Shown piece after piece: positions 8,544 to 12,695 of a stretch of 64,000 bases of DNA. Positions within the stretch are counted from its first letter, which is position 1, and every line of letters begins with the position of its first letter. Origin of the DNA: Gammaproteobacteria bacterium (GTDB lineage Bacteria; Pseudomonadota; Gammaproteobacteria; UBA4575). The notes beneath the pieces were generated by a model, which saw only the letters and a list, made by a program, of their open reading frames with translations, had not been told where the DNA came from and searched no databases. Position numbers and translations under genes: made by a program. Where the stretch lies: positions 704,001 through 768,000 of the forward strand of contig CBDEUS010000001.1 in the NCBI GenBank assembly GCA_965243395.1, given 5' to 3'.

Positions 8544-9776
8544 ATGAGCTTTTTCGAAATCGTATCAATGTTGCTGTGTTTTGCAGCTGTCTTCGCATAT
8601 ATCAATTACAAATACATAAAATTGCCTACCACAATTGGCATTATGTTATTAAGTTTAATGTTCTCATTAGTACTCGTTTTATTTGGAGAGCTTGGGTTTT
8701 CGTTAGAAGATCAAGCAACCAGAATTGTAGGAAGTATTGATTTTAACGAAGCTTTACTACATGGAATGTTAAGTTTTCTACTTTTTGCTGGCGCATTACA
8801 TGTAAATCTGAATGATTTGCGCGAACAAAAGTGGGTAATTGGAACATTAGCCACAGTTGGTGTGATTTGCTCTACATTCATCATAGGGACTGTGATGTTT
8901 TATGTATTGCAGTGGTTAGACATCCATGTTGCATATATTTATTGCTTAGTGTTTGGTGCGTTGATTTCTCCAACAGACCCAATTGCTGTAATGGGAATTT
9001 TAAAAATAGCTGGGGCACCTAAGACATTGGAAACAAAGATTGCTGGCGAATCATTGTTTAATGACGGTGTTGGTGTGGTTGTGTTTTTAGTTCTACTTGG
9101 TATTGCAACCGGTGGAGATGAAATTACGACAACGCAAGTTATCAAGCTGTTTTCTGTAGAAGCCTTAGGCGGTGTTACATTTGGTCTAGGTTTAGGATTT
9201 CTTGGCTTCTTCATGCTACGAGGCGTAGATAACTACCAAGTTGAAGCTTTAATTACCTTAGCATTGGTTTCCGGTGGGTATGCATTTGCTGAGTACTTAC
9301 ATATTTCGGCACCGATAGCGATCGTAGTTGCAGGGTTGTTTATAGGTAATCAAGGGCGAATGTTAGCAATGTCAGATAAGACGCGGAAACGATTGGATGA
9401 TTTCTGGGAACTCATTGATGAAATTCTCAATGCAGTATTGTTTTTGTTAATTGGTTTGGAATTGTTAATTCTTACCTTTACCAATCAATTCATGATTGCG
9501 GGATTGATAGCAATTCCGGTTGTTTTGTTAGCACGATTTGCATGTGTGGGCACCCCAATTCACATAATGAGGAAGTTTAGAACGTTCTCGCCTTATGCGG
9601 CGACTATTCTTACCTGGGGTGGTTTACGTGGCGGTATTTCAGTTGCATTAGCACTTTCTATACCTCCTGGCCCAGCCAGAGAGCCCTTACTTGTAATTAC
9701 ATATTTCGTTGTCGTATTTTCAATACTTGTTCAGGGTTTAACAGTCAAAAAAGTTTTGGCTCTTTCGCAAAAATAA
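8544..9776 (+). CDS. CPA1-family Na+(K+)/H+ antiporter (NhaP-like)
   Basis: Multi-TM protein with FGALISPTDPIAV, GESLFNDG and WGGLRGGISVALAL motifs. Confidence 0.92.
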   Translation: MSFFEIVSMLLCFAAVFAYINYKYIKLPTTIGIMLLSLMFSLVLVLFGELGFSLEDQATRIVGSIDFNEALLHGMLSFLLFAGALHVNLNDLREQKWVIGTLATVGVICSTFIIGTVMFYVLQWLDIHVAYIYCLVFGALISPTDPIAVMGILKIAGAPKTLETKIAGESLFNDGVGVVVFLVLLGIATGGDEITTTQVIKLFSVEALGGVTFGLGLGFLGFFMLRGVDNYQVEALITLALVSGGYAFAEYLHISAPIAIVVAGLFIGNQGRMLAMSDKTRKRLDDFWELIDEILNAVLFLLIGLELLILTFTNQFMIAGLIAIPVVLLARFACVGTPIHIMRKFRTFSPYAATILTWGGLRGGISVALALSIPPGPAREPLLVITYFVVVFSILVQGLTVKKVLALSQK

Positions 9777-9840
9777 TTGCTCTGCGTGTGCAATTTCTAG
9801 CAAACTGTTGCTCAATCCTCAAGAAGGCCGATCAATTGTA

Positions 9841-10680
9841 ATGGAACTTCAAAAAGAGCTGATCCGCTTATATCTGCATACCTGTGAGTTAGATGTTCAA
9901 TCATTGAAACCAGGCAATGTGAGTGTCTATTCATCTGTAAAAGATTTGTCAGTTGATGATTTTTTGAACAGTGCACAAGCCAGTGCTAAAGAAATTACTG
10001 CTGTAGATGTTCCACTAGGAGTTCGAATCTTGAGGGCAGTAGAGGCTACTCAAAGTGCAGTAGGGACAAACACCAATCTAGGTATGATTTTACTGATTGC
10101 TCCGCTCATCCAAGCCCGTTATATATCTAAAGATGGCTCAAAGATTAGAATGAATCTAGGGTCAGTTTTAAAACAGACTTCCATCCAAGATGCGCGTGAC
10201 GTTTATCAAGCCATTCGCATGGCAAACCCAGGAGGAATGGGCGAAAAAACCAATCAAGATATTTCTGAGGAACCTAATGTAACCCTCTTAAATACAATGA
10301 AAATTGCGGCAGATTGGGATCAAATTGCTGCACAATATTCGAACAATTTTGAAGCAATATTTTGCTTTGGAGTACCGCAATTTAAAACGCTAAATATGCG
10401 CTGGCAAGATGAAAAATGGGCTACAAGTGGTGTATTTTTGTCGTTTTTAGCCCAATACCCTGACAGTTTAATTGAACGTAAGTTTGGACAGTTAAAAGCT
10501 AGAGAAATTAGTGATATGATCTCCGAACTTGAGATGGAGCTCTGCCGATCGGACTTACCGGGTAGGTACGAGGCACAATTATTAGAAATTGACAGCCAGC
10601 TCAAGCGTGACCTAATCAACCCGGGAACCACTGCGGATCTCACTGCAGCTAGCATTTTTGCAGCTGGCTTGTGTAATTGA
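9841..10680 (+). CDS. CitG-family triphosphoribosyl-dephospho-CoA synthase-like protein Orf7
   Basis: ELDV...KPGNV, NTNLGMILL, DSLIERKFG and NPGTTADL motifs; ATG 9841 preferred over TTG 9808. Confidence 0.88.
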   Translation: MELQKELIRLYLHTCELDVQSLKPGNVSVYSSVKDLSVDDFLNSAQASAKEITAVDVPLGVRILRAVEATQSAVGTNTNLGMILLIAPLIQARYISKDGSKIRMNLGSVLKQTSIQDARDVYQAIRMANPGGMGEKTNQDISEEPNVTLLNTMKIAADWDQIAAQYSNNFEAIFCFGVPQFKTLNMRWQDEKWATSGVFLSFLAQYPDSLIERKFGQLKAREISDMISELEMELCRSDLPGRYEAQLLEIDSQLKRDLINPGTTADLTAASIFAAGLCN

Positions 10681-10692
10681 CGCTTGTTAATT

Positions 10693-10790
10693 ACTACAAG
10701 ACAGAGGTAAAACAGCAGTAGGTCCCAGACAATAGTCTGCGGTTTTCCAAGGTGGATTTGCAAGCGGGCATGCAATGCTTAGCTTGTAGT
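10693..10790 (+). ncRNA. Candidate structured cis-regulatory RNA (riboswitch-like) in the fae leader
   Basis: Closing helix ACUACAAG/CUUGUAGU encloses helices GUAGGUCC/GGAUUUGC, CAGAC-AAUA-GUCUG and GGGCAU-GCA-AUGCUU; folded by hand only. Confidence 0.55.
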
Positions 10791-10829
10791 TTGTCGACAA
10801 ATTAGAAATATAATTTTAGGAGAATAATA

Positions 10830-11357
10830 ATGGCATTAATTAATAAAGTAATGGTCGGGGAGTCGCTCGTTAATGATAACGATCCTTCCGGCACTATGGC
10901 TGAAATTGCGCATATCGACTTATTGGTCGGTCCTCGCGGTTCTGCTGTTGAAACTGCTTTTTGTAATGGCTTGGTGAATAACAAGGATGGCTTCTCTACA
11001 TTATTGGCCGTAATTGCACCAAATCTACCTTGTAAGCCAAATACTATGATGTTCAACAAAGTAACTATTAAAGGTGCAGAGCAAGCGGTTCAAATGTTTG
11101 GCCCAGCTCAAGCTGCAGTTGCTAAAGCGGTAGCAGATAGTGTTGAAGACGGTACTATTCCTGCTGATGAAGCGGATGATGTATTTGTTTGCGTTGGTGT
11201 TTTCATTCACTGGGAAGCTAAGAGCAACGAAGCGATTTATGAAAACAACTACAAGGCAACTAAAGAAGCACTAGAGCGTGCCGTTAAGGACGAGCCAAAA
11301 GCTTCTACAGTTGTTGCACAAAAAGATAGCGCGGAGCACCCATTCAAAGGCTTCTAA
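10830..11357 (+). CDS. fae: Formaldehyde-activating enzyme
   Basis: [35 protein letters not shown] and VGVFIHWEA motifs; SD AGGAG. Confidence 0.96.
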
Positions 11358-11380
11358 GCAACTTTTTATTGCTAAATATA

Positions 11381-11413
11381 AAAATGCCCCGACTATGTTC
11401 GGGGCATTTTTTT
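11381..11413 (+). terminator. Intrinsic terminator after fae
   Basis: AAAATGCCCCGA-ctatgt-TCGGGGCATTTTTTT. Confidence 0.88.
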
Positions 11414-11459
11414 GCCTGGGACTTTTGTTGAGTTTAATATGATGGTCAAAACTTAGTCT

Positions 11460-11468
11460 TGATATAAT
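11460..11468 (+). promoter_or_regulatory. Extended -10 promoter element, probably giving a leaderless transcript
   Basis: TG-A-TATAAT ends 6 nt before ATG 11475; no SD sequence. Confidence 0.55.
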
Positions 11469-11474
11469 ACGAAT

Positions 11475-12695
11475 ATGCGATGTAAAGAGTGTAATAAAGA
11501 TATAGGTAGCTATATAAGCAATGAGCATTTATACGCTTGTTGTGGGTTAACTTTACAAGAATATGCATTACGCCATCATCAACCGTTGGATTTGTTGCTG
11601 AATACAGATCAAATTAACTTGCAAGATAATGTTTCAAATTATGAAAAACAGAACAGGCCCGCTAGCCAACAAGCGCAGAATCTGCTTAATGGTTTGTATA
11701 TGGCTAATGCCCTCCAGCAAGAGGGAGATTTTACATTTGTCACGCTGGGAATACGCAGATTAGAACAACTATTGTGGTACCAGAATATTTTGCAGTCTAT
11801 TGGATTTCAGTTTAAGCAAGAGTATTTTTATGCAAATGATAGTCACCGAGTGATTGCCAGAAATGCACTTAAAATTCCTACTGCTTTTTTACCACCTAGA
11901 ATAGTAAACCACTCGGATGATTCATTGTTACAGCAGCTTGCCGTATTGATTGCGCATATCGGTGAACTGCATGCCGGTTATTTATTTATAGATTTTCCTC
12001 AACAACAGAATGCTGAACAAATAGCTGCTAAATTGGCAAATAATCATCAAATCCGTATAAAACCGCTGATGGCTACGGAACATTTTGACGGACAATTAAT
12101 GAGATGCGAAACATTAGAAGATACTTCGCGTCTGCTTACATTGTTAACTGAATATTTAGAAGATATTCCTAATGCGCGAGAGAGATTTTTTGAAAAACAT
12201 GAAGAGGCGCTTGTAGCTAAAGAATTAGTATTTGATTCTGCTCATTTCATCACCGACCACCCTGATAAATGTGCAAATCTCCATGGCGGAAGGTATGCCA
12301 TGAATGTAAAAGTTAAAGATCAAATTGACCCATTAACTGGGTTTGTATTGGATTATGGTTATTTAAAACGTATAGCCAAAGAAAAAATTGTAAATCAGCT
12401 TGATCACCATAACCTTAATTATGTATCAGCTGAATTATCTTGGCGTTCAAGCACGGAATTGTTAAGTATTTTTATTTGGGAAAAACTGATCGAATATTTG
12501 CCGGGTTTAACGGAATTACAGATTTATGAGACTAGTCAATCACATTGTTGTTTCAAAGGCCCTAGTTTGGATGAGCTGCAGAAGAAAGGGAGTAGCGTGT
12601 TATTGAATCATTTTAGTTCTGACGAATTAGGGAAATCTCAACTGCGAAATTTGCTGGATCAGAACATACAGCGTAAATTTAAAGTGATTGGCTGA
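11475..12695 (+). CDS. Zinc-finger / degenerate LAGLIDADG-like / QueD-PTPS (T-fold) fusion protein
   Basis: The C-terminal ~160 aa carry PTPS motifs (FDSAH, CANLHGG, GFVLDY, LDHHNLN, STELLS, IYET); the N-terminus has CxxC...H...CC-GLTLQEY. Confidence 0.75.
   Translation: MRCKECNKDIGSYISNEHLYACCGLTLQEYALRHHQPLDLLLNTDQINLQDNVSNYEKQNRPASQQAQNLLNGLYMANALQQEGDFTFVTLGIRRLEQLLWYQNILQSIGFQFKQEYFYANDSHRVIARNALKIPTAFLPPRIVNHSDDSLLQQLAVLIAHIGELHAGYLFIDFPQQQNAEQIAAKLANNHQIRIKPLMATEHFDGQLMRCETLEDTSRLLTLLTEYLEDIPNARERFFEKHEEALVAKELVFDSAHFITDHPDKCANLHGGRYAMNVKVKDQIDPLTGFVLDYGYLKRIAKEKIVNQLDHHNLNYVSAELSWRSSTELLSIFIWEKLIEYLPGLTELQIYETSQSHCCFKGPSLDELQKKGSSVLLNHFSSDELGKSQLRNLLDQNIQRKFKVIG

Follow-up and report, generated by a model that had tools for sequence, protein, structure and literature searches.

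In organisms that oxidize formaldehyde through tetrahydromethanopterin (H4MPT), the transcript and protein of formaldehyde-activating enzyme (Fae) rank among the most abundant ones, and the mechanism by which fae expression is uncoupled from that of weakly expressed neighboring cofactor genes has not been worked out in this group. What, then, precedes fae that could set it apart? The question is addressed here for a 64,000-nucleotide (nt) stretch of a gammaproteobacterial genome (contig CBDEUS010000001.1, positions 704,001 to 768,000), referred to below as the window, in which fae is separated from the upstream gene orf7 by a 149-nt spacer. An earlier note on this DNA had read the spacer as a closed junction of four helices, P1 to P4, with a possible additional pseudoknot, and had proposed either a riboswitch for a one-carbon (C1) or pterin ligand or an element that raises fae mRNA through stability or processing. 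The likeliest reading from our analysis is that the spacer provides the fae mRNA with a structured leader (or intercistronic segment) that is modular and specific to the lineage. The leader is composed of three independent stem-loops (10724–10742, 10746–10757, and 10758–10789), a palindrome, an unpaired A/U-rich tract, and a strong Shine–Dalgarno (SD) sequence. The parts of the locus are as follows, in coordinates of the window.

9808–10680, + strand: orf7, CitG-like and H4MPT-linked (Pfam PF01874, E 3.5e-63; from the list of open reading frames, ORFs), 5′ of the spacer
10681–10829: spacer between orf7 and fae, 149 nt
10693–10700, + strand: 5′ arm of P1, complementary to 10783–10790 in the genome of the window only and unsupported by conservation
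10724–10742, + strand: hairpin 1, which is P3 (CAGAC/GUCUG) with a CC/GG extension and one bulge
10746–10757, + strand: pyrimidine/purine SD-like motif UCCAAGGUGGAU, predicted to form a small UCCA/UGGA hairpin (M)
10758–10789, + strand: hairpin 2, a 32-nt stem-loop whose tip is P4 (10766–10780)
10790–10801, + strand: invariant palindrome TTTGTCGACAAA, a weak AU-rich hairpin 3 or a protein site
10802–10829, + strand: A/U-rich unpaired tract and SD sequence AGGAGAA (10818–10824), 5′ of the fae ATG
10830–11357, + strand: fae, formaldehyde-activating enzyme (Pfam PF08714, E 5.1e-66)
11380–11411, + strand: canonical intrinsic terminator after fae; the 3′ arm of its 13-bp stem enters a run of seven U extending past the stem

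Folding and covariation of the spacer

All four complementary pairs of the earlier note, as well as its pseudoknot, were found where they had been placed. The closed four-helix junction they were thought to build is not favored: it scores −23.8 kcal/mol, versus a minimum free energy (MFE) of −36.4 kcal/mol for the segment 10681–10832. In the ensemble calculated for the same segment, P3 and P4 form, with pair probabilities of 0.965 and 0.999, while P1 and P2 do not (0.00 each), because the 3′ arm of P1 pairs with 10758–10765, making one 32-nt hairpin (hairpin 2). The 3′ arm at the base of this hairpin is thus the 3′ arm of P1, the 5′ arm overlaps the 3′ arm of P2, and the stem that results (10758–10765/10782–10789) has an ensemble probability of 0.999. 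Hairpin 2 was evaluated at −13.6 kcal/mol; hairpin 1 has an MFE of −8.5 kcal/mol (z score −2.5). As had been noticed, the element (10693–10790) is more GC-rich than its surroundings, at 46.9% versus 37.6% for the window and 32–45% for three other spacers; the genome has 38%. When the stability of single sequences was compared with that of shuffles, a 106-nt segment gave a z score of −1.08 (31 of 200 shuffles folded as well) and a 152-nt segment gave −2.02 (8 of 200 as good). Single-sequence folding is only marginally above shuffles and is unable to decide whether the element is real.

Helices were counted in a MAFFT alignment of 12 sequences from the genus of the window, with 500 shuffles as the null. 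In the base stem of hairpin 2, 95.8% of cells are paired (shuffled mean, 89.1%), a value that none of the 500 shuffles attained. Both sides have changed in three of its base pairs, and its covariation (0.623 versus 0.448) was also beyond the reach of every shuffle. The remaining helices behaved differently from hairpin 2 in this test. Pairing in P1 (80.7% of cells versus 79.2% in shuffles) was equaled or exceeded by 124 of the 500 and that in the proposed pseudoknot (81.8% versus 79.5%) by 86; P2 is paired in 94.3% of cells versus 91.8% (11 of 500), with covariation no better than that of shuffles (81 of 500). P3 is invariant in sequence within the genus, and two rows are one column out of register, so that its counts are uninformative either way. 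Taken as whole structures, the combination of P3, the long hairpin 2, and the palindrome was matched by only 2 of 500 shuffles, versus 233 for the junction proposed earlier. The expectation that the structure should be conserved or covary upstream of other fae genes was therefore borne out for hairpin 2 but not for P1, P2, and the pseudoknot, which stay within the shuffles.

Mean pairwise identity of hairpin 2 within the genus is 52.7%, versus 78.7% at third codon positions of fae. Low identity together with retained pairing is the pattern that would be expected from selection on pairing alone. The 5′ arm of P1 differs at five of eight bases in the nearest relative (L002), whose Fae protein is identical, and pairing of the 43-nt upstream region with the 14-nt 3′ arm is weaker there, the best duplex going from −11.6 to −4.6 kcal/mol. 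A role of P1 as a switch alternative to the base of hairpin 2 was considered and found unsupported: own and cross-species duplexes scored −10.8 and −8.8 kcal/mol, respectively (standard deviation, 2.3), and no more than 3 of 11 sequences had their own 3′ arm as the best partner, in a test whose upstream segment included coding sequence.

The position of hairpin 1 holds a different hairpin in other genera, and in the g7 group the hairpin found there covaries (0.222 versus 0.155; 0 of 500 shuffles). Forty of 55 family leaders have a hairpin that ends no more than 6 nt before the palindrome, built from 29 distinct pairs of outer arms. In type-B leaders, hairpin 2 shows G-U or U-G in 28 of 132 cells and A-C in one, and a single position is G-U in 18 of the 22 sequences; within the genus of the window, G-U or U-G occupies 25 of 95 hairpin 2 cells. 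G-U pairs had earlier been taken as a sign of structure in RNA, and the ratio of 28 wobbles to one A-C pair among type-B cells upholds this view. Because wobbles are common and A-C pairs rare, the structure forms in the sense-strand RNA; a DNA cruciform and an antisense transcript are ruled out on the same grounds. As is expected of a stabilizer, the structure of hairpin 2 is conserved through compensatory change, and this on the sense strand.

Distribution and module order of the leader

Fae was found in 51 of the 56 genomes of the family to which the window belongs (E ≤ 1e-60); an order-level search gave the same 56 genomes. Sequences upstream of fae numbered 194 when identical ones were counted once, 57 with Fae at ≥86% identity (family type) and 137 below that value. 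Family spacers have their modules in the order variable hairpin 1, pyrimidine/purine motif, variable hairpin 2, palindrome, A/U-rich tract, AGGAGAA, and ATG. A covariance model built from 20 leaders of other genera only, with the genus of the window left out, matches the window at 10720–10832 with 45.4 bits (E 8e-8), which is its sole match in the 64 kb. With a cutoff of E ≤ 0.01, the model matches 34 of the 56 family genomes; each match immediately precedes fae, with a single match to each fae copy. Outside the family, model R1 gave weak matches at the fae start in 8 of 100 sources and in 2 of a further 35 (E 0.013–0.77). The orf7–fae spacer is single-copy in its own genome, which rules out a repeat or mobile element. 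A second, distant Fae-like gene (31% identity) is located at 218772–219269 of contig C2 in genome G000, outside the window, and is present in most family genomes.

Conservation of the leader is best in the SD-like motif (10746–10757) and in the palindrome, which is the most conserved piece and lies at the edge of the interval delimited in the earlier note. Its core, TTGT[CTA][GA][AT]CAA, stands at −40 to −31 from the ATG in 51 of the 57 family-type sequences and in none of the 137 others. From the palindrome to the ATG, mean pairwise identity in the genus is 92%, versus the 78.7% of fae third positions, and AGGAG is invariant in alignments A1–A4. The GGAG of the SD sequence has a mean unpaired probability of 0.69 over 55 leaders and is thus mostly predicted to be open; folding of these leaders revealed no conserved helix that sequesters the SD. 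A leader peptide or upstream ORF was considered and rejected for want of conservation: by eye, the ATG in hairpin 2 opens an 11-codon frame in the window, and relatives have frames of 2–17 codons or none.

A scan of the 64-kb window with the 4227 models of Rfam release 15 gave no match at gathering thresholds, in agreement with the remark that the element does not resemble the THF, ZTP, FMN, SAM, or Moco riboswitch consensus. At E ≤ 10, only two unrelated models appeared in 10500–11000, SBWMV1_UPD-PKh (16.4 versus 32 bits) and FourU (13.4 versus 60 bits), with E of 2.5 and 8 and scores well short of the gathering values. No description of a structured RNA or riboswitch at fae was found in the literature searched. 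The available part of a report on a Methylophaga strain lists 11 riboswitches, none of them at fae (PMC12530212); the family of the window is not established as Methylophaga. None of the families or papers searched describes the element, which to that extent is new, while its kind, the hairpin leader of an abundant mRNA, is already known.

In genome G023, a 245-nt insertion with a 76-codon ORF separates the palindrome from the fae SD, and the hairpins and the motif remain beside orf7. The hairpins carry new compensating arms (GGGCAG/CUGCCU), and the palindrome is degraded to TTTTGTTGGCAAAC. The first codons of the inserted ORF (MAISFDIYCDY...; L220, 2390–2665) repeat the fae start (ATGGCAATA).

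A second lineage, L050–L054, has related motifs, namely CAGGGAGAU, a GC hairpin, and the palindrome; the likeness of these loci, and of L056, L080, and L101/L103/L200, to the family leader was judged by eye and not by statistical alignment. Groups labeled Porisulfidus and Thiodiazotropha (L050–L054, L057–L064, L137) have long, hairpin-rich orf7–fae spacers of their own, with the words CAGGGAGAU, GAUUCCCG, GGUGGGGAUAC, and GTTAAC at about −35 in common. Such spacers may belong to a wider fae-leader family across gammaproteobacterial groups. Several betaproteobacteria-like loci outside the family (L023, L024, L109; L065, L066, L072, L091) have a conserved short frame before fae (ATGTCAATCTTCAAA... 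or ATGACCAGTTTGTGGGATGA...), which is a candidate upstream small ORF or N-terminal extension; those of L023 and L024 continue in frame into fae.

Function of the leader and rival explanations

Methylosinus trichosporium has the same orf7–fae order, and the available part of a report on it gives values of 24353 and 24787 for fae1 versus 73 and 72 for orf7, together with fae1 starts of its own at −215 and −105 (PMC3615186). As far as this part of the report goes, the dedicated starts and high values make a long leader specific to fae plausible. A family-wide σ70 promoter was sought by a position-weight scan of 55 leaders and rejected: none is conserved across the family, and only clade-specific candidates were obtained. 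A simple promoter scan of the window returned 6 sites, versus 6.1 expected. In groups g5 (TTGACT-18-TATATT, 10.8 bits) and g7 (TTCATT-17-TAAAAT), the candidates would place the start just before the first hairpin or the palindrome, at a distance of 0–7 nt, which would suit a 5′ stabilizer; these are consensus matches only. Genus g3 has a candidate extended −10 element at about −95. The candidates of the window are TTGCAA-16-TAGCTT, with a start near 10792, and TTGTAG-19-TATAAT, with a start inside the SD.

The explanation that we favor, tentatively and with somewhat less than even confidence, is that the spacer holds a real, conserved structured RNA leader specific to fae. It would act in cis to stabilize, process, or insulate the message, and a protein would probably bind it at the palindrome or the purine motif. 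The stem-loops would lie at the 5′ terminus of mature fae mRNA or close to it, and no small-molecule ligand would be involved. The 5′ end itself would come from a start or an endonucleolytic cut close to hairpin 2 or the palindrome. Located there, the hairpins would guard the message against 5′-end-dependent decay and would keep the ribosome-binding site from pairing with upstream RNA; as an outcome, fae mRNA would accumulate and be translated far above the co-oriented H4MPT genes. We infer the position of the 5′ end, the stabilizing effect, and any protein partner. The palindrome and the purine motif are conserved in sequence and therefore are probably protein contact sites, and the strict conservation of the palindrome within the family points to a partner that reads sequence.

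The two proposals of the earlier note fared differently. A stability or processing element by which fae mRNA comes to exceed the other messages of the operon fits the hairpins seen here, which form at the RNA level, with compensatory changes, beside an open, A-rich ribosome-binding site. A riboswitch does not, as no conserved core, terminator, or SD helix was found. The readings partly overlap.

Several observations weigh against the leader as we picture it. As RNA alone, the palindrome is not a stable hairpin (+0.5 kcal/mol, probability 0.009), and in genus g3 (13 genomes) only three base pairs are possible within it; structure alone therefore cannot explain its invariance. A model of stability alone leaves the SD-like motif without a function. 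The L017 clade lacks both hairpin 2 and the purine motif and nevertheless retains fae. Promoter-like hexamers overlap the hairpins, and given this overlap part of the conservation may be at the DNA level. Finally, the predicted pairing of a UUUUCC tract with the SD in the window and some relatives, described below, hints at regulation and not just protection.

Among the alternatives, control at the DNA level survives best, though we regard it as unlikely. On this reading, a dimeric repressor or activator would use the palindrome as its operator, the surrounding A/T-rich and hairpin-arm sequences would make up the fae promoter, and the hairpins would be mainly orf7 read-through RNA; it overlaps the explanation that we favor in part and is compatible with it. 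An operator would account for a palindrome that is the most invariant piece of the leader, fixed in position, and unstable as RNA, and whose flanks change symmetrically from G:C to A:T (AGTTTGTCGACAAACT; TTATTTGTTAACAAATAA in g5). The center of the palindrome varies (TCGA, TTGA, TATA, TTAA, or TAAA). Its TTGT..ACAA form is one that we take to resemble GntR-type operators. A promoter-like layout with the palindrome inside a 17–19-bp spacer also recurs: TTGTAG-19-TATAAT in L001–L003, TTGTCT-17/18-AAAAAT in type B and g3, and TTTACG-17-AATACT in g7. However, such a promoter would start transcription inside or after the SD, its −10 element ending at −16 and AGGAG spanning −12 to −8, and its −35 element, which lacks conservation, coincides with variable parts of hairpin 2 (loop and arm). 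Further operator copies are also missing: the exact palindrome 12-mer occurs twice in the genome, the other copy being inside a long ORF, and in a genome scan for relaxed sites (87, of which 10 are outside long ORFs) only the fae site was seen, by eye, to precede a ribosome-binding site. No regulator gene is present among the five flanking ORFs scanned, which encode an ATP-grasp protein, an Na/H exchanger, the CitG-like orf7 product, Fae, and a PTPS protein. Outside the family, the same arms occur at the same place 0–4 nt apart (TTGTTTGCAAACAA in L050–L052, TTTGTGACAAA in L080, GTTTGTTAAAC in L056, and GTTTATTAATAAAC in L101/L103/L200), which a dimeric DNA binder would tolerate poorly and which, judging from these sequences, would fit a hairpin better. 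Three sense-strand G-U variants versus one A-C variant likewise speak against control at the DNA level. As to the neighbors, the Na+/H+ exchanger gene (PF00999, 8544–9776) sits between the ATP-grasp gene and orf7 in an otherwise H4MPT-linked row.

The purine motif raises the question of CsrA/RsmA-type control, in which a GGA in or near the loop of a small hairpin and the GGA of the SD would be bridged by a dimeric RNA-binding protein, tuning fae translation. We consider this decidedly unlikely. The genome does contain a csrA gene (PF02599, 92 bits). In alignments, the motif UCCAAGGUGGAU of the window corresponds to CCAGGGAGGAU or AAGGGAGAU in relatives and aligns to the type-B model, and GGA is found in the motif columns of 45 of 56 leaders (12 of 12, 19 of 22, and 14 of 22 in the separate sets). 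A small UCC/GGA hairpin is predicted repeatedly among leaders; in type-B leaders, it folds as AUCC-AGGGA-GGAU, with GGA in the loop. The motif is repeated in tandem 2–3 times in three species, L011–L013 (AGGAGAUU), and the SD reads (A)CAGGAG or UAGGAG. On the other hand, a word such as GGA is short, and the motif could just as well be a simple look-alike of the SD; it is missing in 11 of 56 leaders, and in the window the stem, not the loop, holds its GGA. In sequence, about 70 nt separate the two sites. The motif presumably resembles the CsrA consensus. Short tandem duplications were also noticed in the leader itself, AGGAGATT occurring 2–3 times in the three species L011–L013 and AATTCCA twice in genus g3 (L019 and L117, for example); they suggest slippage in the linker that holds the purine motif.

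Pairing of the pyrimidine tract offers a further possibility. In the MFE fold, UUUUCC (10743–10748) pairs with GGAGAA of the SD (10819–10824), with a probability of about 0.67 in the window. The same pairing is predicted at 0.5–0.75 in the window, L002–L004, and L010, that is, in 5 of 55 leaders, the remaining 50 lacking it. This tract could be the basis of a class of regulatory RNA not described before, common to at least two or three gammaproteobacterial orf7–fae lineages, if it pairs with either the decoy SD-like motif or the true SD, the balance being set by a C1 or pterin metabolite or by a protein bound to the palindrome. We rate this as a long shot; if true, the UUUUCC balance would gate translation of the first enzyme of formaldehyde oxidation.

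Still less probable is that the hairpins are a 3′ structure of orf7, either a leaky terminator or a 3′ stabilizer of the orf7 transcript, with fae being transcribed from a separate downstream start. In G023, the hairpins do stay beside orf7 when the 245-nt insertion moves fae away, but as the insertion is downstream of the palindrome, both readings accommodate it. In metatranscriptome X1 (share 0.14, four short pieces), a contig from a relative runs from orf7 about 70 nt into the spacer and represents RNA or contaminating DNA. Of the other runs examined at the contig level, X2 and X5 contain the stretch in full within long contigs and are probably the source of the DNA, and X6 gave nothing. 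Hairpin 2 is followed by UUUGU (UUUGUCGA), where the U run is 3 nt long, versus seven U after the 13-bp stem of the fae terminator. No intrinsic terminator, in the sense of a G+C-rich stem followed by a U run, was called on the + strand of 10681–10829, as the earlier note had maintained, and the tight spacing between the palindrome and the ATG points to fae. The terminator after fae (11380–11411) folds at −19.7 kcal/mol (z score −5.4; 0 of 200 shuffles as good) and was not listed by the simple terminator scan of 9500–11800, which thus misses some clear sites.

The least probable reading is the riboswitch, that is, an aptamer gating fae expression in response to H4MPT, methylene-H4MPT, or some other C1 or pterin signal: a conserved structured non-coding RNA does precede a cofactor-dependent enzyme gene without any Rfam match, its linker nucleotides between covarying stems are conserved and unpaired, its pyrimidine tract can pair with the SD-like motif or the true SD in the window and four relatives as a possible switch, and related motifs recur in L050–L054, but P1, P2, and the pseudoknot have zero ensemble probability and no covariation, the hairpins are separate, change in number between genera, are lost as modules in some, and have unconserved loops, there is neither a conserved core nor an expression platform (no terminator, and UUCC:SD pairing in only 5 of 55 leaders), and the leader is confined to one family and weak relatives, with the palindrome in 0 of 137 other loci, although fae and H4MPT are widespread.

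A conserved, covarying leader of the kind favored here provides a testable handle on where the message starts, which hairpins set its lifetime, and what binds the palindrome and the purine motif. Where strong expression is wanted in marine methylotroph hosts, it would also offer a natural 5′ module of compact size. On present evidence, it adds no new class of riboswitch ligand.

Comparison with known systems

The closest known systems include the 5′-terminal stabilizer stem-loops of long-lived bacterial mRNAs, typified by the 5′ untranslated region (UTR) of E. coli ompA; the intercistronic hairpins that set differential mRNA stability in the puf and pap operons; and the mRNA leaders bound by CsrA/RsmA, of which glgC is the type. 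Riboswitches of the THF, THF-II, ZTP, and Moco classes are likewise cis-acting RNAs located before genes of one-carbon or pterin metabolism; unlike them, the fae leader has no Rfam match and no conserved junction or pseudoknot. Operators of the GntR type (TTGT-N-ACAA) have the form of the palindrome core, TTGTCGACAA, or TTGTATACAA in L005, but in the fae case there are no regulon copies in the genome, arm spacing varies between lineages, and the five neighboring ORFs include no regulator.

With glgC-type leaders, the fae leader shares GGA purine motifs upstream of and within the SD, one of them in a small loop in many relatives, as well as the presence of a CsrA gene. It differs in that the motif is absent in 11 of 56 leaders and the spacing is long. 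As in the puf and pap operons, the element follows a gene of weak expression and precedes one whose abundance is expected to be much higher. By analogy, in the available part of the Methylosinus report, fae1 stands roughly 330-fold above orf7 (PMC3615186). There, however, the difference comes with dedicated fae starts and not with demonstrated processing (PMC3615186).

Compared with ompA-type stabilizers, the fae leader conserves the sequence of its invariant palindrome and of its SD-like motif, for which stabilization alone would create no need. The likeness lies in the overall design: in both cases, a very highly expressed gene has an unpaired, A/U-rich ribosome-binding region preceded by one or more stem-loops, and structure is conserved more strongly than sequence.

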